The position numbers and the translations under genes are program-made. A stretch of DNA of 64,000 nucleotides, taken from contig JADZGC010000011.1 of assembly GCA_020854115.1 (NCBI GenBank), positions 5,057-69,056 of the forward strand, written 5' to 3'. The DNA comes from a bacterium. Its GTDB lineage: Bacteria; Patescibacteriota; Saccharimonadia; CAILAD01; GCA-016700035. The notes beneath the pieces were generated by a model that saw only the letters and a program-made list of their open reading frames with translations, did not search any database and was not told the origin of the DNA. Positions 6,541 through 42,697 of this stretch are shown piece by piece (the stretch's first letter is position 1; the number at the start of each line of letters is the position of its first letter).

Positions 6541-8193
6541 ATGCGAAAGAGAAAGATCGGTCTTTGGTTGGGTATCATTGGTGGGTTGCTGGCTTTCAGT
6601 GCACTATCAGCTCCGCCGGTCGAGGCAAATGCTGGGGAGTCAATTCAGAGTTATCAAACCAATATAACCGTCAGGAGTGACGGTTCGGCCCTGATCGAAG
6701 AAACCTTGAACTATGATTTTGGCAGTGAAGATCGGCATGGAATCATTCGAGCAATTCCGCTATCCGCCAAGCTACCAAATGGTAAATACTTTAATTACGA
6801 ATTCAAGACCGAATCTGTGCAGCGCGATGGCATGACAGAACCATTCACCGAGAAAAAACAAGGCACCTATAATGAGATCAAGATTGGGAGTGCAAATAAA
6901 ACCATTGCTGGCGCCCATCGATATGTGATCATCTATACTGCGTCACGTGTTATGCAGAAGGATGAGGCTGGCGATTATTTCAACTGGGATGTGATTGGTA
7001 CTTCCTGGCCAGTCCCGATTCGTAGTTCTCGTGCCATCATTACATTTCCAGATGAGGCGCCAGTCTTGGACTCGATGCGCTGTTATGCCGGCGCGCAGGG
7101 GAGTACAGATATGGGTGGTTGCGAACTGACGAAATCCGGGCAGACCATTACGGCGTCGATCGGAGCACTGAGTGCCAATGAGGGCGCGACGGTAAATATT
7201 CTGACTGAAGCAAATAGTTTTCAGCAGTATCTCGAGGAGTCAGATGCCCCGAAAGGTGAGTCGCTCACCGACGCTGGATTACCGGGTATACTTGCAATAT
7301 TCATCTTTACGATCTTGCCATTTCTGGCTGTGCCATTGATCTTTGTGGTCATAGCTGTGGTGTATTTGCGTAATCGAGTGCAAACAAAACAACGCCAAAA
7401 ACAACAAACCGTCATCGCTCAATATGAGGCGCCTGACAACCTGACGCCAGCACAACTCGGACTCCTTCAAGATAGTGTAGCTGGCATGACCGAAATAACC
7501 GCGACCCTTATTGACCTTGCGGTACGAGGATTCATCAAGATTACAAATGTCACGAAAGGTAGCTTCATCAAGACTATTGATTACCAGTTTGATCTCTTGA
7601 AGTCTACGAGCGATAAAGAACTACAGGGGTACGAACAGCAGCTTCTCTTGGCAATGTTTGGTGGTCATAAGCAGATTAATCTTCGCAAGATAGATCGCAT
7701 GTCTATGTCGACTGCCGTTGCGGCGATTGCTAAGCAGCTGAAGCAGGAGCTACAACAACGCGGATACTTCGCGCAAAAACTCAAGTGGCTGAATGATCCG
7801 GACAATGTGACGCCAGATGGATATAAGGCGTGGGCGCGAGTTGAGGGCTTCAAGCTATTCTTGAGCGTGACGGAAAGAGATCGATTGAAGTTTACGGACG
7901 CACCAGCAAAGAACCCCGAACAATTTAGTAGGCTCCTACCATATGCGATAGCGCTTGGAGTCGAGAAAGAATGGGCGGCACAATTTGCTGGTATGGATGT
8001 AGCGCAGAATCTTAGTTGGTACAGTGATCCATCGAGCACGAGATTCAATAGCGTACTGCTCGTGAATAATCTGAGTGGCAGTTTCTCCACAGCTGTTTCG
8101 AGTGGGTTTTCTTCACCTAGCTCAAGTGGCGGCTCAAGTGGCGGTGGCTTCTCTGGTGGCGGTGGTGGCGGTGGCGGTGGCGGAAGCTGGTAG
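6541..8193 (+). CDS. DUF2207-like membrane protein with Gly-rich C-terminal tail
   Basis: Signal peptide, conserved N-terminal YQTNITVRSDGS...YDFG..HGI.R.IP pattern, central TM pair, terminal GGGFSGGGGGGGGGG tail. Confidence 0.7.
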   Translation: MRKRKIGLWLGIIGGLLAFSALSAPPVEANAGESIQSYQTNITVRSDGSALIEETLNYDFGSEDRHGIIRAIPLSAKLPNGKYFNYEFKTESVQRDGMTEPFTEKKQGTYNEIKIGSANKTIAGAHRYVIIYTASRVMQKDEAGDYFNWDVIGTSWPVPIRSSRAIITFPDEAPVLDSMRCYAGAQGSTDMGGCELTKSGQTITASIGALSANEGATVNILTEANSFQQYLEESDAPKGESLTDAGLPGILAIFIFTILPFLAVPLIFVVIAVVYLRNRVQTKQRQKQQTVIAQYEAPDNLTPAQLGLLQDSVAGMTEITATLIDLAVRGFIKITNVTKGSFIKTIDYQFDLLKSTSDKELQGYEQQLLLAMFGGHKQINLRKIDRMSMSTAVAAIAKQLKQELQQRGYFAQKLKWLNDPDNVTPDGYKAWARVEGFKLFLSVTERDRLKFTDAPAKNPEQFSRLLPYAIALGVEKEWAAQFAGMDVAQNLSWYSDPSSTRFNSVLLVNNLSGSFSTAVSSGFSSPSSSGGSSGGGFSGGGGGGGGGGSW

Positions 8194-8297
8194 CTGATAA
8201 AACGCTGGCGACCCGGGGTATACTGCTTATGCTTGTCCGGACAAACTGTGTAGAATACAGCTATGCACGTAAATCAATATAGGGTTGCCGGCTCGCA

Positions 8298-9035
8298 ATG
8301 GCGCAAGTAAACTCTTCGCAAAGTCAGACAAGCGGTGATTCGCGCTTGGATACGTTGCACGTCACGCTCGATATTGTAGATGAGCAGGTGATCGATGAGC
8401 CGACTGCCTCAGAAAAAATTGCATTCTTTCTGAGTTTTCTACCGCTTGTGGGATACGTTGGAGCGGCGATGGCTGCATTTGCAGTGCGCAATCATCATCG
8501 TGCAGGCACGAAGACACATGGCCTGACCTATGCTGCACTCGCTCTGCAAGTCTTTTATACGCTTCTTATGCTTACAGGTCTGGTGGTGAGTATGCAAATC
8601 CAGCAGTCTAGTCTTGCGCCAACGAAGCCAGCTGAAGCAACTGCACAGAGCTTCATAACTACAGTTCAAGCGAGTAACTTCACTGCGGCAAGGGCGTATT
8701 TTGCAAACCAAGTCAGTAATGCGCCTGAAGTCACATTGCCTATGTATCGGGCAGCCATGACGGGCACACCCTTGCTTGTAGAGAGTCGTATGATCGAGAA
8801 ACCGACTTTTCAAGACCAATCATTCAGTGCGTATACAGACATGCCATTGAGCTATCAGCTTTGGCATATTGGTACGATAGAGACTAATTCTCAGTATCTG
8901 ATAATAATCTTGTCGGAAGTTGCGCGTGATGATTGGCGGATCATCCAGGTGCAGAGTCTCGAGGCACCTGGTGACTCGAGTGCTAAGTCCGCAATCGATC
9001 AGGTGGTTGGTGCATTGCTGGCACCTGCTACGTAG
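8298..9035 (+). CDS. hypothetical membrane protein
   Basis: 245-aa ORF with two hydrophobic helices. No recognisable family. Confidence 0.5.
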   Translation: MAQVNSSQSQTSGDSRLDTLHVTLDIVDEQVIDEPTASEKIAFFLSFLPLVGYVGAAMAAFAVRNHHRAGTKTHGLTYAALALQVFYTLLMLTGLVVSMQIQQSSLAPTKPAEATAQSFITTVQASNFTAARAYFANQVSNAPEVTLPMYRAAMTGTPLLVESRMIEKPTFQDQSFSAYTDMPLSYQLWHIGTIETNSQYLIIILSEVARDDWRIIQVQSLEAPGDSSAKSAIDQVVGALLAPAT

Positions 9036-9058
9036 CTCAAGCGTGATACAATCTAGTC

Positions 9059-9460
9059 GTGCAGCCGAGTATGAAACATCGGATTTTTGATTATACGCGC
9101 TTAGCCTTTTGGGTAGGGCTGATTGCGACTATGTATGTGTGTGTGGCACTGATTGATATAAGTGCACGTAATACTACTCTGCGCGAACGAGCTGATCAGC
9201 TCGAAGAGGATACGGTGAGGCTAGAGACTGAGATCGAGATCTTGCAGGCGCAAATTACATACTTCAAGACAGATGAGTTTCAGGAGCGATTAGTGCGCGA
9301 GAAGCTCGGTTTACAAGCTCCAGGCGAGCAGGTTGTGATTGTTGGTCGAGGCGACAGCGAACTTGGCGCAGAAGCGAATAGGAAGAATGAAACGGCACTT
9401 CTGCCGGAGACATCGCACGTGGATGAATGGATGACATTTTTGTTTGGCGAAGCTGAGTAG
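9059..9460 (+). CDS. septum formation initiator-like protein (FtsB/DivIC/FtsL family)
   Basis: Single TM followed by a coiled coil (RERADQLEEDTVRLETEIEILQAQITYFKTDEFQERLVREKLGL). Start is ambiguous (GTG at 9059 or ATG at 9071). Confidence 0.6.
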   Translation: MQPSMKHRIFDYTRLAFWVGLIATMYVCVALIDISARNTTLRERADQLEEDTVRLETEIEILQAQITYFKTDEFQERLVREKLGLQAPGEQVVIVGRGDSELGAEANRKNETALLPETSHVDEWMTFLFGEAE

Positions 9461-9511: not shown

Positions 9512-9587
9512 CGCGGGGTGGAGCAGTTGGCAGCTCGTCAGGCTCATAACCTGAAGGTCGCTGGTTCGAGTCCAGCCCCCGCTACCA
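9512..9587 (+). tRNA. initiator tRNA-fMet (anticodon CAT)
   Basis: CGCGGGG 5' end with a C1-A72 mismatch. Three consecutive G-C pairs close the CTCATAA anticodon loop. CCA end. Confidence 0.9.
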
Positions 9588-9650
9588 GAAATGTACTTTT
9601 TCGGAAATCGTCGCCCGTATGGGCGGCTTTTTCCGAAAAAGTACATTTCT
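9588..9650. terminator. nested hairpin terminator within a perfect 20-bp inverted repeat
   Basis: GAAATGTACTTTTTCGGAAA ... TTTCCGAAAAAGTACATTTC arms enclose an inner CGCCCGTATGGGCGGC hairpin plus a T-tract. Lies between the tRNA and the convergent high-GC gene. Confidence 0.6.
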
Positions 9651-9739
9651 GGTGGAGCTGTTGAGACTTCTCTCGAACAAGAACCGAACGATCTGATGCG
9701 CAGGGCTGCGCCGAGAGGCACATTGCGCTCACAGCCCGA

Positions 9740-10426
9740 TCAGCACACGCTCACCGCAGGGTCGACGAACGGTGTTCCCACCAGCGATCCGGAGGTCTGC
9801 CCATTGTTGTAAAACGCGTCTGCAGACACGTAGAAGGTGTCGTTCCACGGGCTCGATGCGATTCGATACCACCATGTGTTGCCGTCCTGGACGCGGAACC
9901 CCTCGACCCGACACCTGATCTGCACGGTCGTGTACGCCGGGATGCTGGGCCCCTGTGTCCCGCCGGCGGTGAGATAGTCGGTCCAGGTCGCTGCATCTCC
10001 ACCGGTGGTCTCGGCGAACGTGCCCGGCGGAGACGGTGCGGCACTTGTGGTCGGTGACACCACCGTGGGCGGTGGGTTGGTAGACGCAGGCGGTCCTCCG
10101 GAGTTCGATGTCGTCGGGGATGGTGGCGGTCGCGGTGGGGCGACTGAGGTTGGCTTGGTGGATTGCGTCTCGCCGAGCGAAGTCGACGGCACGGCCTGCG
10201 TCGTTGAGGGACCGGGGGCGCTCGTCGGCCCAGCGACGACTGCTCCCCGAGACGTCGTCGGACGCGAGACCGGAGGTACCGCGCCGGTAGCCCGGTCCCT
10301 CACGTTCTGCTCTCCGCCGTCCGTAAGTACGAACGACAGGCCGGCGACGAGCAGCACGAACGCGACGGCGGCGAACGCAAACGCACCCCTCGGCCTTGAA
10401 TTTGTGACGGCGAACGACTTGAGCAA
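9740..10426 (-). CDS. secreted/membrane-anchored Pro/Thr-rich protein with C-terminal SH3b-like domain (island gene A)
   Basis: N-terminal TM (AFAFAAVAFVLLVAGLSFVL), PT-rich linker, and a C-terminal W/Y-rich domain (TTVQIRCRVEGFRVQDGNTWWYRIASSPWNDTFYVSADAF). GC-rich codons. Confidence 0.65.
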   Translation of the reverse strand: MLKSFAVTNSRPRGAFAFAAVAFVLLVAGLSFVLTDGGEQNVRDRATGAVPPVSRPTTSRGAVVAGPTSAPGPSTTQAVPSTSLGETQSTKPTSVAPPRPPPSPTTSNSGGPPASTNPPPTVVSPTTSAAPSPPGTFAETTGGDAATWTDYLTAGGTQGPSIPAYTTVQIRCRVEGFRVQDGNTWWYRIASSPWNDTFYVSADAFYNNGQTSGSLVGTPFVDPAVSVC

Positions 10427-10457
10427 GCTCTACGCTCCCTTGACACGTTCCGGACGC

Positions 10458-10799
10458 ATGCGCTCGTTCTACTGGAACCCCGACCCAGGGGAACGGGCAC
10501 TGATCGCGAGCGGCCTCTTCCCTTCGCTTCCGGCCGACGATCTAACCGAGCTCACCAAACACTTTTCCGATCAGCCAATCAGCTTCCTAGCCGATATCGC
10601 GAGCCATCACCTGACCCTTGTGCTGGGCGCTGAGATCGACGCCAACGACTTCCCGACGGTCCTTGCGAATGTGCGTCTCGGAGAGTACGACGACTTTGCC
10701 TCGGGATTGTCACTAGAGCAATTGATCTCAATTGGTGATTCGTATCGCAATTCCTACATCTATCAGAGCTACCTTTCCCTGGAGGGATCCGCATCATGA
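10458..10799 (+). CDS. hypothetical protein (island gene B, 113 aa)
   Basis: ATG at 10458 chosen. The 10005 extension overlaps gene A and looks like a high-GC artefact. Its stop overlaps the gene C start (ATGA). Confidence 0.5.
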   Translation: MRSFYWNPDPGERALIASGLFPSLPADDLTELTKHFSDQPISFLADIASHHLTLVLGAEIDANDFPTVLANVRLGEYDDFASGLSLEQLISIGDSYRNSYIYQSYLSLEGSAS

Positions 10800-11353
10800 C
10801 CGCTACCATGACGTACGCCGTCACTGCGTCCGCGACCACGACTCGCCTGCGTGCTATCGAATACCAGATTCGTTACTCGCTCAAGTCGATGGCTCAGATT
10901 GATAGCGACTACCTCGACCGCATAATTAGGGCCATTCGGATGCAGTTCTGTTCCGAAGTTTGGATCTACGCAGTTGATCCATTGAGCGGCGCCTGTGACC
11001 AGGCGGCACGATTGCGACTCGACTGGGAACGACATGAAGCCCTGAACATGGAAACCCCAACCATCGACCTTCGCGAAGCATACTACGGCAAGGAACTCGC
11101 GCCGACGCTTGAGGCGCTGATTGAGAGCTTCCTTGAAGGGCGTCGGCCCAATCATGAGATCGAGGTCCAACTGGGCGACATCATGCCGAAGTTCCGCAGC
11201 AATAAGGAGCTTCTCGATCGCACTCTCAGCGAACTTGGCTTCCGACTCTGTGACGCGCCGCCTTGGGCAGTAGGCGAAGTCGATTCAGAGGACGCCAAAG
11301 TGCTGCGCCTCGAGGAGATGTCTGGAGCACTGTATTGGGTCAAAGCAGGATGA
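10796..11353 (+). CDS. hypothetical protein (island gene C, 185 aa)
   Basis: Translationally coupled to gene B. Balanced amino-acid composition. No recognisable family. Confidence 0.55.
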   Translation: MTATMTYAVTASATTTRLRAIEYQIRYSLKSMAQIDSDYLDRIIRAIRMQFCSEVWIYAVDPLSGACDQAARLRLDWERHEALNMETPTIDLREAYYGKELAPTLEALIESFLEGRRPNHEIEVQLGDIMPKFRSNKELLDRTLSELGFRLCDAPPWAVGEVDSEDAKVLRLEEMSGALYWVKAG

Positions 11354-11549
11354 CGAGCCTGCTCCCGGGTCAAGCCAGCTGTTCGATTGACATTCTCCGC
11401 GGCTGTGGTACACTATAGAACTATGTTTCGAGGGCGGCTGCGGCGGCATTTGTAATGCGGATCTGCCGGAGCCGCGCTCGATCACGAAATCGAGACCGGA
11501 AGCACATCTGTGTGCTTTCGAGTAGTTCCGCGGCAGAAGGTGACCGGCC

Positions 11550-11768
11550 ATGGCAGGCTCGTCGCAAGCCGAGCAGTCTCGACGGGAGGTCGCAGTCCCC
11601 CTTGAGAGAATGCTCCACCGAGTTCGATCCGGAGAATCACCTCAAATGGAGGTTGAGACTCTCACGAGCGAACTGTGGGATTTGGCCCACCGGGCGTTTG
11701 GCATCAGCCAGTCTCCAGTCGACTCGTTTCGGGATCGGCTGGAGGAGATCGACGCACGACAGGCCTAG
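11550..11768 (+). CDS. small hypothetical protein (island gene D, 72 aa)
   Basis: GAAGGTGA RBS before ATG 11550. Acidic helical protein. Followed by a perfect 12-bp hairpin. Possible TTGACA/TACACT promoter at 11387-11414. Confidence 0.45.
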   Translation: MAGSSQAEQSRREVAVPLERMLHRVRSGESPQMEVETLTSELWDLAHRAFGISQSPVDSFRDRLEEIDARQA

Positions 11769-11775
11769 CAGAGGG

Positions 11776-11804
11776 TCCGACGAGTGCATGACGCACTCGT
11801 CGGA
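11776..11804. terminator. perfect 12-bp stem hairpin between convergent island genes D and E
   Basis: TCCGACGAGTGC-ATGAC-GCACTCGTCGGA. No U-tract, as is common for high-GC terminators. Confidence 0.4.
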
Positions 11805-11895
11805 CTCACACTTCCAATTACGGCAGGGCAGACCCTGGGGAGCAGGACGCCGCCAGGCGATCTCGGCGGGGACGGAATCTTGGCGTCAGTCATTT

Positions 11896-12501
11896 TCAGA
11901 TCAGTCCGCGGCGCTCTAGATCGTGCATCTCCCGAAGCAGTGCGACAACAAGCATGATCGCAACTAGCGCGTTGACCTTGGTGTACTGCGTATCGCAGAC
12001 ATGGTGGAGCGATGCGTGGCGGTTGTAGGCATCGGGCACTGCATCCCCGCGATTCGGCCAGAACGTGCCGAGTACCGGAGGAATACAACTCGTGATGAGG
12101 GCCGCCCGGAACATGTCTGAAGCGACTTCGCCAGGGTCCTGCACGAGAGATTCCGCCGCCTCGCGGAGCGTGTCGTATCCCATGTGCGCCTGGAGGATCG
12201 TGGTGACCAGCGCCGCAGCGAGTGCCTGACCCGAGGCGGTGTGGCCGGCTCGAATCGCTCCAGCCGCATCGGACGCGAATGGCACGAGTGGCGAGAAGCC
12301 GCCGGTGACCTCGCCAAGCAACCGATCGCAGGCATCGAGCAAGGGGAGCTCGGCAAGCGCATCGAGCGCCGTATCGCGGCAATCGATGCAGCCATGGTCA
12401 GTCTGCCGGAGTCGCTCCGCCCGGAGGACGGCTGGGACTACCAGGCGCTTGTGAGCGTCAACGGGGTCTCGGTCGGAGATGGTGACTCGTGGGTCAACCA
12501 C
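11896..12501 (-). CDS. hypothetical protein (island gene E; 5' extent uncertain)
   Basis: The minus ORF runs 11896..12816, but its upstream part is antisense to ORF F and Arg/Ala/Val-rich. The protein-like part covers at least 11896-12393. Possible starts are ATG 12183 and GTG 12501. No family recognised. Confidence 0.35.
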   Translation of the reverse strand: MVDPRVTISDRDPVDAHKRLVVPAVLRAERLRQTDHGCIDCRDTALDALAELPLLDACDRLLGEVTGGFSPLVPFASDAAGAIRAGHTASGQALAAALVTTILQAHMGYDTLREAAESLVQDPGEVASDMFRAALITSCIPPVLGTFWPNRGDAVPDAYNRHASLHHVCDTQYTKVNALVAIMLVVALLREMHDLERRGLI

Positions 12502-12756
12502 GCCGAACCGTTCGACGAACACTGCGAAGGCCGCGATGCTCAAGTTGTGTACGCCGTTCCGGCTGCCGACGGCGAACTGGTGGCCCTCGCTTACTACAAG
12601 TGGGGCTACTGGAACGTCAACCTCCGCTGGCGCGAGACGACCGACAGCTCGCCTGTCGCGACTCACGCCTCGGAGGAGTCGGCATCCGCCACCGAGCCTG
12701 TTGACATGGAGGACGCCTTGCAACGCCTCCAGGACAGATTCGGTCCGAACCGGTAA
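12394..12756 (+). CDS. hypothetical protein (island gene F, 120 aa)
   Basis: ATG 12394. Hand count on 12481-12660 gives GC3 about 78%, GC1 about 68%, GC2 about 45%, favouring this frame over the antisense ORF. Acidic C-terminus. The stop coincides with the GC drop. Confidence 0.4.
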   Translation: MVSLPESLRPEDGWDYQALVSVNGVSVGDGDSWVNHAEPFDEHCEGRDAQVVYAVPAADGELVALAYYKWGYWNVNLRWRETTDSSPVATHASEESASATEPVDMEDALQRLQDRFGPNR

Positions 12757-12964
12757 ACGACTATAACTATCCTTGAACCCAACAAGGTAAAAAATCTTGC
12801 AGGTAACTGCAAGCATGAAGCCTCAAGGTTTTGTGAGGGGAAGCTCATCGCGGTAGGCGAGCTAAAGTGTACGTTCCAATGCAAGGTGGAGTATGGCACA
12901 GAACCGTCCGGTTTCTCTCGAACCCGGGTCTGATCTGAAGAGATAAGACGAAGTTGAGAGATAC

Positions 12965-13033
12965 GCCCCAACCAACGCTTGCCGTCCAGGCAAGCTCCGA
13001 AAGGAGTAAAGATTGGTTGGGGCGTTTTTCTTT
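12965..13033 (+). terminator. structured element / terminator: 11-bp outer stem enclosing two hairpins, then a U-tract
   Basis: Outer stem GCCCCAACCAA...TTGGTTGGGGC. It encloses GCTTGCC-GTCCA-GGCAAGC and CTCC-GAAA-GGAG (GNRA tetraloop), followed by GTTTTTCTTT. Confidence 0.45.
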
Positions 13034-13616
13034 GTCTATCCTTGAGACCCTTTGCGCAAAGTGTGTGTCTCTTTTGCGATTGAGATGTGGTCGGCTTAGC
13101 TGCATCTATCGGATTGCGCGCTCGTGCAGATGACTTTGTCGATCAGGCATTTGATAATACTCTTGCTGGGCACATCGTAAACAGTATGAGTAATATTGAG
13201 GATGTAAATACTGGAGATGCTAACACCGATGGGGTGCCCGACAAGAATCAATCATCGGTCATGTCATTCTTGTTGCAGACACCTGGAACAGGTACTCGCA
13301 TGACGTTTGTTAGCTCCGGTTGCACCGATACGGCATGAGCAGATGCGATTGACGCACACATATTTTGATTATCTCCGTCACAAACGACCACTTGTCGCCG
13401 AAAACCCACGTATACATTACACATTTTGACATCACCTCAGGGTCGTAACCTTCCCAATCTTGCGCTACAAGATCTCATTTGTGATCGAGCGACAAGACAC
13501 GCGATAGGGCTAGATTTGTATCGTCCAATCTGGTATAACTACATAACGTGCAAGAGGGGAAATAGTGCTTCTCCTTTAGTCGTGCCGACAAGTACTTTAC
13601 ACTAAGATAGTCGTAT

Positions 13617-13693
13617 GGCTGCGTAGCTCAGTTGGTTAGAGCAATGGACTCATAAGCCAGAGGTCGGTGGTTCAAATCCACCCGCAGCCACCA
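13617..13693 (+). tRNA. tRNA-Met (anticodon CAT), elongator-type
   Basis: GGCTGCG acceptor stem pairs with CGCAGCC. CTCATAA anticodon loop. GGTGG-TTCAAAT-CCACC T-arm. CCA end. Anticodon stem has two non-WC pairs. Confidence 0.8.
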
Positions 13694-14064
13694 ACGAGAC
13701 AGCTTTAGAACCCCGGTCAATGGAACATTGGTCGGGGTTCTTGAGTTCTCGAACCAGTTCGTCGGCGAGGTCGGCGTGATGGTTATGGGCTGATCGACCG
13801 CTCGAGCTATACAGTTCATTCTGTGTAGCTCATCTTTTCTCGCGTTCCCAACCTGGGGGGTACGAGGATGTTTTTTATGCTTACAGTATATTGACAAAAT
13901 AATATATAAGTAGTAGAGTGATACATTAACTTCGGGTGTTGACGACTTACTAACCATAAGCAAACAGAGCCCGTCCGCCATAAGTTAATGTTCGTCTTTT
14001 GTCATCTAGGATTAATATATTGAGAGAGGTTAGAATGCGAAACAGGTATACGAAGGGGGGCATC

Positions 14065-15888
14065 ATGAAAAAAGTTTTGGGTTTGGCCGCAGTCATAGCG
14101 CTAGCTGTTGGCGTGCTTGCGCCTGTCTCGACTGAGGCGAGTGCAAATTTGATTGCCAATAATTCGTTTGAGACTGCCTCGGGCAATAGTGCTCCAAACT
14201 GGACTATAGGGACGTGGGGTACAAACACATCCACCGCCAGAATCATGACGTCTGGCTCACAGTCTGGTACGCGGTCTGGGCGCGTTACGATCTCGAGCTA
14301 CACGAACGGCGATGCCAAGTGGCGTTTTAAACCAGTCGTAGTCACTTCGGGCAAAACGTATACATTTAGTAATTGGTATAAGTCCAATGCTGTGACAGAG
14401 CTGGATGCGGAAGTCATTATGCAAGATGGTTCGACGCAGTATCTTTGGCTCGCAACCGTGCCGGCCAGCTCGGCCTGGAAGCAAAATGCGCTGACATTTA
14501 CAGCTCCCGTGAATGCAAAAAAGGTTTCGATTATACATATTTTGTACTCGACCGGATGGCTGCAGACCGACAATTACTCATTGATCGCTCAAGATGCGCC
14601 GTCGCCAACGACGACCGTTACGCCTCCAACTACCACGGTCACACCACCTACCACTACCCCACCCTCTCCGACGGTTGTGCCTCCGACTACCACTGTGCAG
14701 CCACCAGCACCATCGACTAATCTCATACCAAATGCATCAGTCGATGAGGGTGCGGCCAATGTGATTAATGGTTGGCTGGCAGGGTATTGGGGCTCACTGA
14801 CTGCGCAATTCACCACTCCGACGCAAGGTGCGCAATCTGGATCGCGCTATGCGCGAGTTGATGTTATTAACTATACTAGCGGTGATGCGAAATGGCTCAC
14901 ACCGGCAATTACTGTGACTGCTGGCAAAACCTATACATTCTCCAGCTACTATCGAGCCAACGTCTCTACGGCTGTTGACGTTGAAGTAACGTTCAATGAT
15001 GGGAGCGTGCAGTATGGCTGGCTTGGTGACACGCCTGCACAATCGACTTGGACGAAATTTACAGCACATTACCAAGCGCCTGCAAATGTAAAGTCAGTCC
15101 GCTTCTTCCACGTCATCAACAAAAACGGCTGGCTTGAAACCGATACCTATAGCCTAGTCGACTCTACGGCCACAACTCCACCTACTCCGCCTCCTGATCC
15201 TGGACATGCACCATTCTCGCGTCCACTGGTATCGATCGAATTTGATGATGGTTGGGCGAGTGCATATCAGTATGGTCTGCCGGCGGTCGAGAGCTTCGGC
15301 TGGAAGCCGACACAATACATCATCACCAATACTGTTTTGAATAACGACAACTATGGTGGTGCATACATGACCGCGGCACAGGTCAAAGACTGGAATGCTC
15401 GCGGTGATATCGGCAGTCATAGTCTCGACCATAGCCACATACCGACTTTGTCCTATGATCAAATAGTTGCGCAGCTGACTCAAAGTAAGTCATATCTCGA
15501 TAGCCTCCTTGGCGAGCCAACCAGCCTCTATGTGTCGCCTTATTGCGAATCAAGCGCTCAGGTGGTGAGTGTTGCTCGGGCGCTCTATCAGAGCGTACGA
15601 AACTGTGACAGCTACACCAACTATAAGGCGTCGTTTGATCGTTGGAACTTGCATAGCTTTATCATTCTCAGTACAACAACCGATACAGAGATCGTGCAAG
15701 CACTCAATAATGCTAAGGCTACCAATGGCTGGCTGATTCTTGTCTGGCACGAAGTTGCTGGAGATGACCCCTCGAAGCTGTATAGCGTGAGTCAGTCCAA
15801 GCTTCTGCGTCAGCTGCAGCTCGTAAAAGACAGCGGCATTCATGTAACGACTACGCAGGCAGCCCTCAACGAATCGCTGGGGCAGTAA
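14065..15888 (+). CDS. secreted protein: two CBM4/9-like carbohydrate-binding modules, PT-rich linker, polysaccharide deacetylase (CE4/NodB) domain
   Basis: Signal peptide from ATG 14065 (GAAGGGGGG RBS). Two repeats beginning NLI(A/P)N.SFE/VDEG. NodB motifs EFDDGW, HSLDHSH, VSPY. Confidence 0.75.
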   Translation: MKKVLGLAAVIALAVGVLAPVSTEASANLIANNSFETASGNSAPNWTIGTWGTNTSTARIMTSGSQSGTRSGRVTISSYTNGDAKWRFKPVVVTSGKTYTFSNWYKSNAVTELDAEVIMQDGSTQYLWLATVPASSAWKQNALTFTAPVNAKKVSIIHILYSTGWLQTDNYSLIAQDAPSPTTTVTPPTTTVTPPTTTPPSPTVVPPTTTVQPPAPSTNLIPNASVDEGAANVINGWLAGYWGSLTAQFTTPTQGAQSGSRYARVDVINYTSGDAKWLTPAITVTAGKTYTFSSYYRANVSTAVDVEVTFNDGSVQYGWLGDTPAQSTWTKFTAHYQAPANVKSVRFFHVINKNGWLETDTYSLVDSTATTPPTPPPDPGHAPFSRPLVSIEFDDGWASAYQYGLPAVESFGWKPTQYIITNTVLNNDNYGGAYMTAAQVKDWNARGDIGSHSLDHSHIPTLSYDQIVAQLTQSKSYLDSLLGEPTSLYVSPYCESSAQVVSVARALYQSVRNCDSYTNYKASFDRWNLHSFIILSTTTDTEIVQALNNAKATNGWLILVWHEVAGDDPSKLYSVSQSKLLRQLQLVKDSGIHVTTTQAALNESLGQ

Positions 15889-15951
15889 CCACTCATTCTA
15901 ATAGAATAAATACACCCTTTAGTGAGGTGTAGTTTGGTATATACTAATAGC

Positions 15952-18363
15952 ATGAGTAAGATAACAAAGCAGGCGCTCATTTTCTTTTGTTTCGTGAATG
16001 CTGTGCTTTTTATCTTTACACACCTCCCGCTCAATAAAGCTCGAGCTGTCGGTACGACACTGACAGTCAGCTCAATCAATGATGGCGACGATGCGAATGC
16101 TGGCGACGGCATCTGTGAGACGTCTACGCCGGGCGAATGCACCTTGCGGGCCGCTATTACTGAGTCAAATGCTAATACGGGCACCGATACGATTGAATTC
16201 AACATTTCGGGCGGCGGCGTGAAAACAATAGGTCTTACAGATGAATTACCCGCAATCACTGAGCAGATAGTGATCGATGGATATACACAGACTGGAGCAA
16301 GTGAGAATACTGCACAGGCGCCTTTGGCGATTAATAGTGTTATTACTATCGCAATTAATGGGAGTACACTTGGCCAGAACAAACTTGGTCTTCGGGTGGG
16401 TGGTGCGAATTCTGTCATTAAGGGCCTTTCGATATCGGGCTTTGATGCAAGTGATGGTCAGCATGGTAATTTACTGATATCGGCAAACAATGTGCAGATC
16501 AAGGGCTGCTACATCGGTGCCGATGCTAGTGGAAATGCATATGGTGCTGGTGATAACAAGGCTGGTATCGGGGTCGTAAATGCTACGGGTGTAGAAATCG
16601 GTGGGATTAATCCAGCCGATAGAAATGTTGTGATCAATAACCACCAAGACTACTCTGCTACAGCGGCAGGCATCATGGTATTACCAGGCTCAGAAGCAAT
16701 AATACAAGGGAATATTGTAGGCCTTGGAAAAGATGGTAGTACTGATTTGGGCGGGTATTATGGAATCATACTTCTCGGAAGTAACAGCCAGATTGGCGGG
16801 TCAAGTAATGGGGAGCAGAATATTGTTTCAGGAGCTCATTCTGCTCAAATCTTGCTCATTAGCTCAGGAACCGTTTCTGGCAATGTGGTGCAAGGAAATT
16901 ATGTAGGTCCTGGAGCAGGGGGTGAAATCAAGCCTAGCATAGATAGTGGCGCAGGCATTGCCTTGGTTGGGGCTGGTGGATCACTAGTCGATAATCTAAT
17001 TGGTGGAGACAACCAAGGTGAGGGGAATACGATACGAGCCGTAAAGGGGATAGGTATTGCAGTACAGGAGATGAATGATCCGGCTCCAAATAAAAACGCA
17101 ATTCTAGGAAACTCTATTTATGACATTAAGGTTAATGAATACTTTAGCGATTTTACGTCTATCAACCAAGGTATTGATCTGTTTAGGCTAACAAGTGTCA
17201 ATCCATATTCATTCTCGGCCCAAGGGGTTACAGGTAATGACATTAATGACACAGACACAGGGGCTAACGACTACATTAACTCGCCCACGCTTCGCACCGC
17301 TCAGCAGGTTAATAACACAATTACTATCACGCTCGATTTAGATGCTAGTGATAGCCCGTCAAATAGTTATCGTATCGAGTTCTTTGCTAACGATGAGGCA
17401 TCTGTTTTTGGCGCTGGACCGGGACAAGAATTTATTGGTAGCCAAGTCATAAGCCCTGGCAGCAATCAGCCAGTTGTATTGAATGTGTCTGGTAATTATA
17501 GCTTCAAGTCACTATCGGCTACTACGACAGCGATTGATAATACCACGAGCACTGGATTCGGCTCTACATCCGAATTCGCGAGAAATATTTCCATAGGTAG
17601 TGCGGAGGATACTGATGCTGATGGAATTATTAATAGTGTCGAAGATGCTGCACCAAATAGCGGCGACACGAATGACGATTCGATTGCAGATCGCTTGCAG
17701 CCAGCCATAACAGCCTTTAAGTCGGGCGACGACAGCACCTGGCAAACAGTGATGACATCTGGTTGTAGCGAAAATAGCTCCGTTTCTTCACTGGGGCCAA
17801 ACGCCTTTCCTAAGCAAGATGCAAACCATAACTATCCCTTTGGCCTGACTGATTTCACTTTGCGCTGTTCGAAGGGTGATACTGCAAATGTGACAATCTA
17901 TTATTTTACTGATCAGGGTGTTGACTCACTCCATCCACGCAAGCTCTTGACCGGTACTGAAGAGTACGTTGATTTGCCAAATGCTACCTTGCAGCAGGCG
18001 CAACTCGGTGGTCAAAATGTCCTGAAGCTCACATATAGTATCCAGGACGGCAGTGCGTTTGATGATGATGGAGGGCTCAATGGGCTAATTCATGATCCAG
18101 TTGGTCTGGCTACCAATAATGCAAACGCTACCTTGCCAACCGTTGGCGCACCCCACGTCCTCTTGCCGGTCGGCTTAGCGATACTCGTGACCTTGATCTA
18201 TGCCTACTACGACTACATGCGTCACAAGAAACCGCTAGTCGCAGAAAACCCACACATTCACTATACTTTCTGGCATCATCTGCGCGTCGTAACGCTACCA
18301 ATTATGAAATATCGGTTTTCGATCGTGGTAGAACGACGAGACTCGGCGCCGATAGCTAGCTAG
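15952..18363 (+). CDS. large surface protein with right-handed parallel beta-helix repeats and C-terminal TM anchor
   Basis: Signal peptide. Many GxNxVxGN beta-helix repeats. Asp-rich calcium-binding-like segment. Hydrophobic anchor VLLPVGLAILVTLIY near the C-terminus. ATG 15952 preferred. Confidence 0.7.
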   Translation: MSKITKQALIFFCFVNAVLFIFTHLPLNKARAVGTTLTVSSINDGDDANAGDGICETSTPGECTLRAAITESNANTGTDTIEFNISGGGVKTIGLTDELPAITEQIVIDGYTQTGASENTAQAPLAINSVITIAINGSTLGQNKLGLRVGGANSVIKGLSISGFDASDGQHGNLLISANNVQIKGCYIGADASGNAYGAGDNKAGIGVVNATGVEIGGINPADRNVVINNHQDYSATAAGIMVLPGSEAIIQGNIVGLGKDGSTDLGGYYGIILLGSNSQIGGSSNGEQNIVSGAHSAQILLISSGTVSGNVVQGNYVGPGAGGEIKPSIDSGAGIALVGAGGSLVDNLIGGDNQGEGNTIRAVKGIGIAVQEMNDPAPNKNAILGNSIYDIKVNEYFSDFTSINQGIDLFRLTSVNPYSFSAQGVTGNDINDTDTGANDYINSPTLRTAQQVNNTITITLDLDASDSPSNSYRIEFFANDEASVFGAGPGQEFIGSQVISPGSNQPVVLNVSGNYSFKSLSATTTAIDNTTSTGFGSTSEFARNISIGSAEDTDADGIINSVEDAAPNSGDTNDDSIADRLQPAITAFKSGDDSTWQTVMTSGCSENSSVSSLGPNAFPKQDANHNYPFGLTDFTLRCSKGDTANVTIYYFTDQGVDSLHPRKLLTGTEEYVDLPNATLQQAQLGGQNVLKLTYSIQDGSAFDDDGGLNGLIHDPVGLATNNANATLPTVGAPHVLLPVGLAILVTLIYAYYDYMRHKKPLVAENPHIHYTFWHHLRVVTLPIMKYRFSIVVERRDSAPIAS

Positions 18364-18406
18364 GCTTTGCACCAAGTAACCTTCAGGCCGTACAATAGTA
18401 GCTAGT

Positions 18407-19729
18407 ATGCTTGAGCGTTTTGTACAACAGCTAGAGGAGCGTGATTTGCTGCCCGCGCACAAAACATATATCGTCGCCGTTTCTGGCGGGGTAGATTCGA
18501 TGGTCTTGCTTGATCTTTTATCGCGTTTGGCGCCAAACTGGGGGTGGATGCTCATTGTGGCCCACCTAGATCATGCGCAGCGACCAGGATCAGATCAGGT
18601 AGCGATGTATGTCGGGGCTACGGCCGATCAATATGGACATAAATTTGTGACCAATCGACTGCGTGCGGCTGCCTTGAGTGAAAGCGCCATGCGTGATAGG
18701 CGTTATGCCTGGCTTCGCGAAATGCAGAAGGCACATGATGCCCTAGCGATTGTTACGGCGCATCATGCCAATGATCGGCTCGAGACGGCGATTTGGCATG
18801 CGATTCGTGGAAGTGGTCGGCATGGATTGACCAGCTTGCGAGCAAGACATACCGACATCATTCGACCAATTATGGCATTTCGCAGAGGAGACATCCTGCT
18901 TTATGCGCATCAGCGCGACTTACAGTGGCGAGAAGATCCATCTAATGCCGACACTGCATACACGCGCAATCTGATCCGTCACGAGCTGTTGGGTCAAGTG
19001 CCGCAGTGGGATCCTTATTATCATCATAATCTTACGAACTGGCTGAATCATCTTGAGGCAGTCAACCGGCGAGTAGATAACTTGCTTGACCAGGTATTGG
19101 ATCAGGTCGGTAGCGAGCATGGTACGGGCTATAGTTTTCGACTAGCTGCCTTACAGCAACTTACTTCACCAGTACTCACAGAGCTATTGGCGTATGTTGC
19201 ACGCCGATTACATGCCGGAAAAGGTCTTACGCAGCGCAATCTTCGAGCGGCTGAGCAATGGGTGCGTACTGCCCCGACCGGCAGCTTTACGGAGGCTTTG
19301 CCTGGCTTGATGCTGACCCGAGAATATGATAGAGTGAACCTCGTTGTCAGTACTGCGCCGGTTGATATTGAGCTTATCGATGACCACTTACCGCTCATGG
19401 CGCAAAAACCTGTCGCATTTGGTCGATTCATCCTACACATGATGCCAAGTCATCGAGCAGATGATGAAGCTTATCACTTAGCTGCTGGTGAATATTATGT
19501 CCGTCGTTGGCAAGCTGGTGATAGAGTACAGCCTTTAGGCATGGCCGGCTCGAAAAAAGTACAGGACATTTTTGTTGATAATAAAGTGCCACGAAGTGAT
19601 CGATTGGTGTGGCCGCTGATTGTTTCGACTACAAACGATATCGCGCTCATCCCGGGTCTTGTACGTGATCGACGATACGCGGTTGTGCCGGACAAAGATA
19701 CGTTGGCAGTAGCAGTGAAAGGGGTATAA
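18407..19729 (+). CDS. tilS: tRNA(Ile)-lysidine synthetase
   Basis: PP-loop SGGVDS near the N-terminus. TilS C-terminal domain. Directly precedes ftsH, as in many bacteria. Confidence 0.85.
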   Translation: MLERFVQQLEERDLLPAHKTYIVAVSGGVDSMVLLDLLSRLAPNWGWMLIVAHLDHAQRPGSDQVAMYVGATADQYGHKFVTNRLRAAALSESAMRDRRYAWLREMQKAHDALAIVTAHHANDRLETAIWHAIRGSGRHGLTSLRARHTDIIRPIMAFRRGDILLYAHQRDLQWREDPSNADTAYTRNLIRHELLGQVPQWDPYYHHNLTNWLNHLEAVNRRVDNLLDQVLDQVGSEHGTGYSFRLAALQQLTSPVLTELLAYVARRLHAGKGLTQRNLRAAEQWVRTAPTGSFTEALPGLMLTREYDRVNLVVSTAPVDIELIDDHLPLMAQKPVAFGRFILHMMPSHRADDEAYHLAAGEYYVRRWQAGDRVQPLGMAGSKKVQDIFVDNKVPRSDRLVWPLIVSTTNDIALIPGLVRDRRYAVVPDKDTLAVAVKGV

Positions 19730-41290: not shown

Positions 41291-42697
41291 ATGAAGCGAA
41301 CACATATCCTGGTTGCGGCTGTCTTGGCGTGGCTGAGCGGTATCGTGTTTGCTGCGAACTACATTACTCAGGTGAAAGTATGGCAGGTAACGATTGTAGT
41401 GATTTTCGCGGTCGTGGCGTCGAGAATCCTTTCGAATCGGCTCATCGTATGGCCTGTCATTTTGCTCGGGGTGATTCTTGGGATTATGCGAGGACAGATG
41501 TACTTTACCGATCAGCGATGGTATGACGTCTCGGATGTGGTGGGCCGGCGTGCGACAGTAACTGGTCGTGTGGCCGACGAGCCAGGATGGAATGATGACC
41601 GACTCTATGAATTTTATCTCGCTGATTTACGGGTGGATGGTCGAGCAACCCCGGGTCTACTCAAAATTAAGTCGCAGGTGGGTAATGTGCAGGAAGGTCA
41701 GTGGCTCGAAGTGCAGGGCAAGATCGGGAAGGCGCTGGGTCGGGCGCCGGCGCAAATATGGTACGCCAAAGTCGTCGTTATTGATTCGCGTCAACCATAT
41801 CCCATCCGCCTGAAGCAGACATTATCTCAGGGTCTGGCAGCGGCACTGTCACGTGAGCAGGCTGGACTTGTGCGTGGATTGTTGTTTGGGGGTCGCGCTG
41901 GCATTTCAGATTCGCTCGAGAGCGACATGCGGATTGATGGACTGTCGCATATTGTTGCCGTCTCAGGGTATAATCTCACGATTATAGTTGCAGCCTTGAT
42001 GCTGATCATGAAACGAAAATCACCGATCAGTCTCATCGCATCGCTGGCGGCAATCGGCTTCTATGTTGTTATGACCGGCTTCGCGGCGTCGATTGTACGC
42101 GCGGCAATTATGGGTACGGTGATTTTGGTGGCTGCGCATGTGCGCAGACAAGTCTCTCTGTGGTCGGCGCTGGTGGTGACGGTGTGGGTGATGACGGCAT
42201 ATGCGCCAAATTATCTCCTCGGCGATATGAGTTGGCAGCTTTCGGTTTTGGCGCTTGTTGGAGTATTGGCAGTCGTGCCACGCATCGAGAATGCCGTGGG
42301 GTGGCGAGCGCTGATTGGCGAATTTTTTATCGTGTCCTGCGCGGCTCACCTGGCAACAGCGCCATTGATCGCATATCGCTTTGGTACGATGTCGTTGATA
42401 TCTCCCATCACCAACCTTGTGATCCTGCCCTGGATACCACTTTTAATGCTTGGGGGTGTGATTGTGGCGTCGATTGGAGTAATAGCTCCGTTGTCGGCAT
42501 TTACGCTCTCCTGGCCGCTACGAATGCTGCTCGATGTAGTTCTGCGGCTCATCAAATGGTTTGCACAATGGCCATATGCTCAGCTGACGTTTGGCGAAAT
42601 CAGTCTCGCAGGAGTGCTACTAAGCTATGTCTGCCTATGCAGCATCTTAGCAATATCGCTCATACACTCTAGAAAAAGAGCCTCAAAAACGGTATAA
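41291..42697 (+). CDS. comEC: ComEC/Rec2-family DNA uptake channel protein (no metallo-beta-lactamase domain)
   Basis: DUF4131-like N-terminus and the competence domain (LVRGLLFGGRAGISDSLESDMRIDGLSHIVAVSGYNLTII). Ends after the membrane domain. Confidence 0.75.
   Translation: MKRTHILVAAVLAWLSGIVFAANYITQVKVWQVTIVVIFAVVASRILSNRLIVWPVILLGVILGIMRGQMYFTDQRWYDVSDVVGRRATVTGRVADEPGWNDDRLYEFYLADLRVDGRATPGLLKIKSQVGNVQEGQWLEVQGKIGKALGRAPAQIWYAKVVVIDSRQPYPIRLKQTLSQGLAAALSREQAGLVRGLLFGGRAGISDSLESDMRIDGLSHIVAVSGYNLTIIVAALMLIMKRKSPISLIASLAAIGFYVVMTGFAASIVRAAIMGTVILVAAHVRRQVSLWSALVVTVWVMTAYAPNYLLGDMSWQLSVLALVGVLAVVPRIENAVGWRALIGEFFIVSCAAHLATAPLIAYRFGTMSLISPITNLVILPWIPLLMLGGVIVASIGVIAPLSAFTLSWPLRMLLDVVLRLIKWFAQWPYAQLTFGEISLAGVLLSYVCLCSILAISLIHSRKRASKTV

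Follow-up and report, generated by a model that had tools for sequence, protein, structure and literature searches.

Islets and islands acquired horizontally at tRNA genes are known by their tRNA neighbor, their deviant base composition, their absence from relatives, and a cargo of defense and surface genes. Among the Patescibacteria, also called the candidate phyla radiation (CPR), transfers between epibiont and host have been used to infer partners, as for Ca. Lutisaccharimonas and Ca. Phosphoribacter (bioRxiv 10.64898/2026.09.16.751625), and Saccharibacteria have been reported to have acquired arginine deiminase (PMC8764695) and shown to be naturally competent (PMC10633639). Here, we analyzed a 64-kb stretch of contig JADZGC010000011.1 (the window, in whose positions all coordinates are given), which carries a GC-rich block of 3.08 kb at 9680 to 12756, between two tRNA-Met genes. 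The block resembles tRNA-adjacent islands in its tRNA neighbor, composition, absence from relatives, and cargo, but it is only 3.1 kb long, has neither an integrase nor an att repeat of the tRNA 3′ end, and contains truncated pieces joined head to head. We consider it probable that the DNA at ∼9680 to 12756 is a horizontally acquired high-GC mosaic, gained after the split from a sister lineage through competence and illegitimate recombination and made up mostly of defense debris. That the block represents a genuine horizontal acquisition is well supported; it belongs with the ordinary tRNA-adjacent islets and is not a new system.

The G+C content (GC) of 9680 to 12756 is 57 to 67%, versus about 49% in the background. 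When GC was computed in 1-kb windows, values of 0.59 to 0.62 were obtained at 10 to 13 kb and 0.45 to 0.55 in the rest of the 64 kb; in 300-bp windows, GC rises at ∼9.7 kb, peaks at 0.71, and falls at ∼12.76 kb, and the GC-rich DNA ends at 12756 with the TAA stop of a 120-amino acid (aa) open reading frame (ORF). Successive sub-blocks have GC values of 0.667, 0.565, 0.605, 0.639, and 0.645, and the flanking segments 0.466 and 0.495. GC at the third codon position (GC3) is 0.64 to 0.79 in the ORFs of the block versus 0.527 ± 0.043 (maximum, 0.606) in the 20 host genes of the window that served as the codon reference, and of all 1.5-kb windows in the 64 kb, the four that deviate most in tetranucleotides (robust z, 5.9 to 6.8) fall within 9.5 to 13.0 kb. 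A GC-rich island running from about 9.7 kb to 12,756 had been proposed in an earlier note on this DNA, and the break in composition was borne out by the 1-kb and 300-bp windows as well as by GC3 and tetranucleotides. Its limits hold for the GC-rich part; the stretch that lacks a counterpart in the sister lineage is slightly wider, from 9592 to ∼13026, and comprises a palindrome (GC, 0.47), the GC-rich 9680 to 12756, and a structured segment of 275 bp with 50% GC. Like tRNA-targeting genomic islands, the block is thus both deviant in composition and absent from relatives.

The genome is Patescibacteria/CPR-like. Among the GTDB representatives, the flanking DUF2207 protein has only relatives of ≤32% identity, all of them in Patescibacteria/CPR metagenome-assembled genomes (MAGs), and the window encodes ComEC/Rec2, a PilB-like type II/IV secretion ATPase, FtsH, DnaK, LepA, and RNase Y. 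In three distant relatives (L011, L052, and L137), the order is DivIC, tRNA-fMet, and tRNA-Met, with the two tRNA genes 79, 58, and 48 bp apart, respectively, and FtsH follows the second tRNA-Met directly in L011 and L052. The latter two of the three loci were the only informative ones in a metagenome scan with a degenerate tRNA-fMet pattern, which returned 104 loci, mostly unrelated. In the window, the tRNA-Met genes are 4,029 bp apart. The left anchor of this variable locus is the initiator-type tRNA-Met(CAT) at 9512 to 9587 (+ strand; ARAGORN and Rfam), in which the acceptor begins with C and ends with A in the manner of an initiator, and the right anchor is a second tRNA-Met(CAT) at 13617 to 13693 (+ strand; ARAGORN), 92% identical to the sister copy.

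The sister lineage (L139/L140) has an FtsH in the same 90%-identity cluster, DNA ∼73% identical to the window, and a GC of 0.498. There, DivIC is followed in order by tRNA-fMet, an 819-aa gene whose GC is host-like, tRNA-Met, a CBM/deacetylase gene, an 813-aa gene, TilS, and FtsH. In blastn against L139, homology ends at 9591, 4 nucleotides (nt) past the tRNA, and restarts at ∼13027 to 13046, at a T-run and the common CTTTGCGCAAAG. When the 819-aa protein of L139 was used in tblastn, its residues 6 to 60, 585 to 623, and 768 to 819 were placed at 13045 to 13236, 13207 to 13323, and 13349 to 13504 of the window, with CTTTGCGCAAAG shared upstream, marking 13045 to 13504 (+ strand) as a collapsed remnant of the native surface-protein gene. 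Since segments of the 819-aa protein map there, what was called an 83-aa ORF (13087 to 13338) is part of that native gene. The 819-aa secreted or surface protein (L139, 499 to 2958) is also a 40%-identical paralogue of the product of the 813-aa gene at 15922 to 18363 in the window. Compared with L011 and L052, the window (13694 to 19729) and the sister hold ∼6 kb of extra genes, namely CBM_4_9/polysaccharide deacetylase, the 813-aa surface protein, and TilS; therefore, the stretch from the tRNA pair to FtsH is a gene-gain hot spot of the clade.

The block is foreign to this genome, as shown by its deviant composition, by its absence from the sister, and by three distant relatives in which the tRNA-Met genes are adjacent. 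In this respect, the proposal of foreign DNA behind the initiator tRNA of a CPR-like genome holds. As to whether the tRNA is followed directly by native sequence in related genomes, a comparison suggested in the earlier note, the block is absent from the three distant relatives, where the tRNA-Met pair is 48 to 79 bp apart, whereas the sister has the 819-aa gene in that place. Exact-protein look-ups of both flanks revealed no island-free variant of this species, and the contigs of two FtsH variants (P0133 and P0134) end short of the locus.

An abrupt change of composition beside a tRNA gene, where de Bruijn graphs branch, could also arise if a high-GC fragment of a co-occurring actinobacterium had been misjoined into a CPR contig during assembly or binning, and many Logan contigs do break inside the tRNA (left-hand contigs end at ∼9558, and right-hand contigs start at 9532 to 9581). 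Such an artifact is very improbable, since three different assemblies cross both junctions with identical sequence: an NCBI MAG contig (72 kb; MCC75434xx), the ENA MEGAHIT contig k141_1050462, and the Logan contig SRR29708232 (33 kb). Seven further contigs span the right junction, and the block is present in every contig carrying the right flank. With both junctions covered by at least three independent assemblies, the chimera that the earlier note had considered is excluded. The breaks inside the tRNA were also considered as a sign of island-plus and island-minus strains, a reading that was rejected because the left and right contigs overlap within the tRNA, as in an ordinary graph branch.

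The block is fixed in all sampled populations. At least 12 contigs, drawn from at least 10 samples and several studies, encode its exact 185-aa product, and each of them is 99.9 to 100% identical to the window; there are 2 single-nucleotide polymorphism (SNP) sites in 3.4 kb of the block segment across these populations. In its left flank, an ENA contig (L001) has 15 differences from the window over 5 kb. We observed that 12 of 21 differences of L001 cluster in 8043 to 9346 (the end of the DUF2207 gene, a 245-aa gene, and DivIC), with none in the 3.4-kb segment, and the cluster could be a recombination tract or reflect relaxed constraint. In another contig (L005; Logan SRR34420819_52476), nucleotides 1 to 23, AGTTTCGAGCGTAGTCGTAAAAG, do not match the window and join it at 9581, in the last bases of tRNA-fMet; they could come from an assembly tip, or the upstream sequence may differ in that sample.

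Six ORFs of the block had been described as belonging to no nameable family, and as first delimited, they gave nothing significant in Pfam, PADLOC, PHROGs, or NCBIfam. Four of them have now been resolved, as an SH3b protein, an AAA+ fragment, a HORMA protein, and probably the 3′ part of a gene whose sole homologue is P0003, and the 72-aa and 120-aa ORFs are left without relatives. The leftmost is a 228-aa surface-protein gene at 9740 to 10426 (− strand). Its product starts with a short N-terminal tail and a single transmembrane (TM) helix, continues with ∼100 aa of Pro/Thr-rich linker, and ends in a domain of 93 aa. This Cys-bracketed domain, coded by 9743 to 10021, is of the SH3b type with an SH3-like beta-barrel fold, is 63 to 81% identical to >600 proteins, and retains all invariant residues of the family. 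Many homologues have PF05257 (CHAP) or PF00877 (NlpC/P60) N-terminal to the domain, usually with a similar linker, which is the arrangement of a targeting module of peptidoglycan hydrolases. The guess of a TM-anchored, Pro/Thr-rich, SH3b-like protein had therefore been correct. At the sequence level, the 228-aa protein matched no Pfam or NCBIfam family at an E value of ≤0.1, and its homologues P0076 and P0053 matched no Pfam SH3 family at an E value of ≤10.

The domain is comparable to known SH3b cell wall-binding domains, such as the lysostaphin SH3b, the binding domains of endolysins, and the SH3-like domain of GH24 muramidases (8b2s/8b2g), in that it stands C-terminal to CHAP or NlpC/P60 behind a Pro/Thr linker in hundreds of homologues. 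Unlike these hydrolases, the window copy has no catalytic domain and is tethered to a TM anchor, an architecture shared with P0076, and unlike the curated SH3b families it has no Pfam SH3 match; binding to peptidoglycan or another wall polymer is a prediction. Two SH3b matches carry an NCBI name, both from Solirubrobacterales; among 72,556 plasmids, the only matches are three Streptomyces plasmids, and a 2.5-Mb contig of 66% GC has 71 to 78% DNA identity to the domain-coding part of the gene. No match to the domain was found in 50,697 phage records (INPHARED tblastn) or in IMG/VR. Thus, the Actinomycetota character that the earlier note had given to the whole block applies to the SH3b gene only; the full-length relatives of the AAA+/HORMA genes lie on a soil contig of 57% GC and a plasmid-like contig of 39% GC. 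Among the pieces of the block, the membrane-anchored SH3b protein is, judged from its sequence, the only one with a plausible present function. A further reading is that the SH3b domain which Solirubrobacterales-like Actinomycetota carry on their CHAP and NlpC/P60 autolysins was captured by a CPR epibiont and is shown on an anchor and a Pro/Thr stalk as an adhesin for host peptidoglycan; we regard it as a tentative and rather unlikely one.

Next to the SH3b gene, positions 10401 to 10799 (+ strand) contain the 3′ remnant of a gene for a Rubisco activase (RCA)-like AAA+ ATPase, which corresponds to residues ∼151 to 278 of a protein of ∼280 aa. In a phmmer search of the Protein Data Bank (PDB), the translation from 10356 matched RCA (3t15_A, residues 154 to 226; E = 1.6e−11) and also 6z1d and 4w5w. 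Among full-length homologues, the 278-aa protein of locus L151 aligned through its residues 151 to 274 (41% identity; E = 9e−27) and the 287-aa protein of locus L152 through residues 152 to 275, both alignments starting at 10404 of the window. Since the alignments with RCA, L151, and L152 all begin at residue ∼151 to 154, the half of the protein with Walker A and Walker B is absent; the C-terminal RCA-type helical region (GRM-x-FYW-xP...) is present. The in-frame sequence 5′ of the remnant is antisense of the SH3b gene and, conversely, the SH3b gene begins on the antisense strand of the AAA+ remnant, which supplies its first ∼9 codons together with the TTG start and an AGGGAG motif of Shine-Dalgarno type; the native 5′ end of the SH3b gene has thus been replaced. 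No promoter-like site was found for the SH3b gene. As the 5′ stretch of each gene is antisense of the other, SH3b and AAA+ are two 5′-truncated genes fused head to head at ∼10400.

Public gene calls omit the SH3b gene and give in its place a + strand ORF of 259/264 aa (10005 to 10799), a "protein" composed of the antisense of the SH3b gene joined to the AAA+ remnant; the same is true of L001 to L010. The public calls look wrong at 10005 to 10799, and therefore the 228-aa SH3b protein is missing from protein databases.

An ATGA-coupled pair of 113 and 185 aa had been noted in this part of the block. The ATGA overlap was confirmed, but the 113-aa ORF (10458 to 10799) is part of the AAA+ fragment, and the 185-aa ORF is a HORMA gene. 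This intact gene, at 10796 to 11353 (+ strand), is joined to the AAA+ remnant through the ATGA overlap and is preceded by a GGAGGG ribosome-binding site (RBS). Its product shows a bacterial HORMA fold with the C-terminal safety-belt region, and its top structural match is a HORMA protein of the cyclic oligonucleotide-based antiphage signaling system (CBASS). A word-indexed protein search returned no relative of the 185-aa ORF; an exhaustive HMMER search yielded 17 colinear relatives of ∼175 to 181 aa with 20 to 30% identity.

Intact AAA+/HORMA loci were found at 2339 to 6103 of L151 and 6165 to 8546 of L152. The former, on a soil contig of 57% GC, is an operon for a 359-aa protein of no recognized family, a 441-aa NYN/Zc3h12a RNase, the 278-aa AAA+ protein (PF00004 plus PF21228, RuBisCO_activase_AAA_helical), and a 180-aa HORMA protein, and near it lie a PD-Lambda-5 defense gene, a P63C-domain gene, and a helix-turn-helix (HTH) gene. 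In the latter, from an NCBI genome, the pair lies on a plasmid-like contig (GC, 0.39) with relaxase, ParAB, and PriCT_2 genes. From these settings, the AAA+/HORMA pair appears to be a mobile, defense-associated module that is not tied to Actinomycetota.

The closest described system is type III CBASS, with its HORMA protein and TRIP13-like AAA+ ATPase (Cap7/Cap6; 6p8r and 6u7b). The likeness lies in the HORMA fold of the 185-aa protein and, in the intact relatives, in the translational coupling of HORMA to an AAA+ protein of ∼280 aa and in the defense and mobile contexts. In contrast to CBASS TRIP13/Pch2, the partner ATPase here belongs to the Rubisco activase clade (PF21228; PDB hits to RCA only), and the gene order is AAA+ and then HORMA. 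A CD-NTase is lacking: no family match (Pfam searches and precomputed Pfam calls) was found upstream in L151 or L152, and neither a CD-NTase nor an effector was found in the window. In its stead, L151 has the NYN/Zc3h12a RNase and the 359-aa protein. Further differences are that the HORMA part of the pair matches no PADLOC or Pfam model, that the L151 genes gave no PADLOC hit, and that the ATPase is truncated in the window. We propose the Rubisco activase-like AAA+ protein (∼280 aa) together with a ∼180-aa HORMA protein as a candidate for an uncharacterized defense module distinct from CBASS TRIP13-HORMA.

Toward the right-hand end of the block, a 3′ gene part at 11896 to 12390 (− strand) aligns only with residues 166 to 314 of P0003, a 332-aa protein (35% identity) that is its one homologue. 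Common to both is the motif RHxxxH (Rx4H), which reads RHASLH in the window and RHGTVH in P0003; no profile hit in Pfam, PADLOC, or PDB identified the product as HEPN. No convincing start codon or RBS was found, and the gene probably lacks its 5′ half, making it another 3′ remnant. At the P0003 locus (L023, 1579 to 4650; a contig of 60% GC), the neighbors are a set of ThiF/E1, Multi_ubiq, and BubE (Bub-like, ubiquitin-type) genes and an HTH/M78 peptidase pair, which is a defense-island setting. The 11896-to-12390 gene meets the 120-aa orphan ORF (12394 to 12756, + strand) head to head, giving a second joint at ∼12342 to 12394. The 120-aa ORF has the strongest codon signature of the block (GC3, 0.79 > GC1, 0.69 > GC2, 0.46), and neither an RBS nor, in the searches run, any relative was found for it; it may itself be a 3′ fragment. 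The public 306-aa − strand call (11896 to 12816) is over-extended and overruns the 120-aa + strand ORF, and its GC3 is lower than its GC1 where the two overlap. A word-indexed protein search with the 306-aa ORF returned one relative only.

Between the HORMA gene and the P0003-like remnant lies a small stand-alone unit (11387 to 11805, + strand). It starts with a sigma-70-like promoter, TTGACA-16-TACACT, at 11387 to 11414, in agreement with the site previously pointed out before the 72-aa ORF, and continues with a leader of ∼135 nt, the 72-aa ORF (11550 to 11768) with a GAAGGTGA RBS, and a perfect 13-bp hairpin at 11775 to 11805. The 72-aa product had no relatives in Pfam, PHROGs, NCBIfam, or a PDB sequence search, and PDB sequence searches with the P0003-like and 120-aa products were likewise negative. 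Because GC3 does not exceed GC1, the coding status of the 72-aa ORF is uncertain. A 73-aa ORF of L151 was considered as its homologue and rejected, there being no homology.

Thus, the block appears to be neither a mobile element nor a coherent operon but a mosaic of at least three or four pieces with joints that cut genes, since the AAA+ alignments start at residue ∼151 to 154, P0003 is matched in its C-terminal part only, the first codons of the SH3b gene are antisense to its neighbor, and the sub-blocks differ in GC. Two and probably three of its genes are 5′-truncated remnants joined head to head. Given that the L151 operon lies near PD-Lambda-5, L152 is plasmid-like, and P0003 stands beside Bub-like genes, the AAA+ remnant, the intact HORMA gene, and the P0003-like remnant appear to be debris of defense-island operons. 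These observations bear on a different view, already present in the earlier note, in which the block is an acquired functional module: the SH3b protein, the orphan HORMA protein, and the small ORFs would be expressed and kept for the benefit of the epibiont, for instance in host attachment or in interference with the HORMA signaling of host or phage. Four ORFs are intact; the HORMA gene, the 72-aa ORF, and the SH3b gene have a good RBS, one sigma-70-like promoter is present, the SH3b domain retains the invariant residues of its family, and the block is fixed and nearly invariant, with the 2 SNP sites in 3.4 kb. Yet the partner ATPase of the HORMA protein has no Walker A/B, no sensor, CD-NTase, or effector gene accompanies it, two gene remnants have neither starts nor promoters, the SH3b gene has no promoter-like site, and near-zero polymorphism fits a recent acquisition equally well. 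We therefore consider a functional module improbable, and what had been taken for one is mostly debris of defense operons in which the ATPase of the AAA+/HORMA pair has lost its Walker A/B half.

The position of the block directly 3′ of a tRNA gene raises the question of an integrative element. A 70-nt palindrome with 33-nt arms, 91% complementary (9584 to 9653; repeat/hairpin search), begins inside the ACCA end of tRNA-fMet and contains a G+C-rich terminator-like hairpin at 9610 to 9627, in line with the nested hairpin described just 3′ of the tRNA; the sister lineage has a different, shorter hairpin in this position. The palindrome was also considered as an integron cassette/attC site, a reading dropped for lack of an integrase and of an array. 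The sole repeat that brackets the block is the 11-mer TTCTCTCGAAC, whose left copy (9668 to 9678, + strand) stands 81 bp past the tRNA, immediately ahead of the increase in GC, and whose right copy (12913 to 12923) lies 155 bp past the GC break, in the 50%-GC segment. These are its only copies in the 64-kb window, with 0.07 expected by chance. The bracketing 11-mer of the earlier note is thus real, but its sequence does not come from the tRNA, and nothing shows it to be an att or target-duplication site.

A decayed tRNA-targeting integrative element or prophage that had lost its integrase and most of its cargo, with TTCTCTCGAAC as the leftover of attL/attR, would explain the position next to the tRNA, the bracketing 11-mer found nowhere else in the window, the defense-type cargo typical of mobile islands, and the truncated genes. 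We consider it unlikely. No integrase, recombinase, or transposase and no phage structural family was found in Pfam, PHROGs, NCBIfam, or PADLOC for the ORFs of 9592 to 13031, as the earlier note had stated, and no excisionase or relaxase family was found in any library. Hence, the integrase that tRNA-targeting islands have at one end is absent, and so are attL/attR sites duplicating the tRNA 3′ end: a repeat search found no copy of the tRNA sequence at the far end. Furthermore, the right copy of the 11-mer lies beyond the GC break, and simple decay of one element leaves the head-to-head joints of 5′-truncated genes unexplained. Searches of IMG/VR with four island proteins and of INPHARED with the SH3b domain (tblastn) found no relatives, and a phage origin of the block, which had also been considered, is without support.

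Beyond the block, the 275-bp segment at 12757 to 13031 has a host-like GC of 0.50 and is also absent from the sister lineage. It is highly structured, folding with z = −4.75 (+ strand) and −5.6 (− strand) relative to shuffled controls, with a terminator-like hairpin at 12796 to 12813 on the − strand and a long hairpin followed by a T-run at 12957 to 13036 on the + strand. No Rfam match and no second copy in the window or in the retrieved loci were found, and over 8.5 to 14.5 kb, Rfam detected tRNAs and no other RNA family. The segment might encode a small RNA or represent a miniature element, and it may either have come with the block or be native.

The explanation that we favor for 9680 to 12756 is a mosaic acquired through competence. 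Environmental or host DNA would have been taken up by the competence machinery of the recipient, ComEC plus type IV pilus; the window carries the genes for the ComEC/Rec2 competence channel (41291 to 42697, + strand) and the PilB-like type II/IV secretion ATPase (52010 to 54058, − strand), both by NCBI name. The DNA would then have been inserted, through illegitimate or microhomology-mediated recombination, into the spacer that separates the initiator tRNA-Met from the second tRNA-Met, a dispensable and already variable site with a decaying native surface-protein gene. Several points weigh against this explanation. Because no near-identical donor DNA was found, the direction and source of the transfer are read from composition and one domain. 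The closest sister has ∼73% DNA identity, so that no really near relative has shown the empty site, and the truncation of the P0003-like gene is read from a single homologue. The low-GC edges, 9592 to 9679 and 12757 to 13031, could be diverged native spacer, and the 11-mer repeat (∼0.01 expected between the two junction zones, a post hoc figure) hints at a more specific mechanism than this explanation calls for. In addition, a mosaic built in a donor or vector before a single transfer is not distinguishable from one built by several insertions in the recipient.

The block is comparable to the reported transfers between epibiont and host in that a CPR genome with competence genes carries DNA nearest to Actinomycetota, the phylum that hosts the cultivated Saccharibacteria. 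Those cases, however, rest on >90 to 99% DNA identity to a named partner or on a complete pathway, whereas here no near-identical donor was found, the link to Actinomycetota comes from a single gene, and the cargo consists mostly of broken genes.

Two by-products of this analysis concern sequence databases: the Rubisco activase-like AAA+/HORMA pair, which neither Pfam nor the 2023 release of PADLOC (PADLOC 2.0) contains, and the recognition that the publicly called "proteins" of 259/264 and 306 aa are artifacts. Taken together, the locus adds an independently assembled case of interphylum DNA in an ultra-small CPR genome, at a variable locus flanked by tRNAs and without mobility genes. Such a remnant is what competence uptake and illegitimate recombination would leave, and its cargo, mostly broken pieces of defense operons, shows what scavenging of this kind yields. 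The intact SH3b gene, whose named relatives are only actinobacterial, provides a testable pointer to the host; if the adhesin reading were true, this gene would serve in attachment and at the same time identify the clade to which the host of an uncultured CPR lineage belongs.

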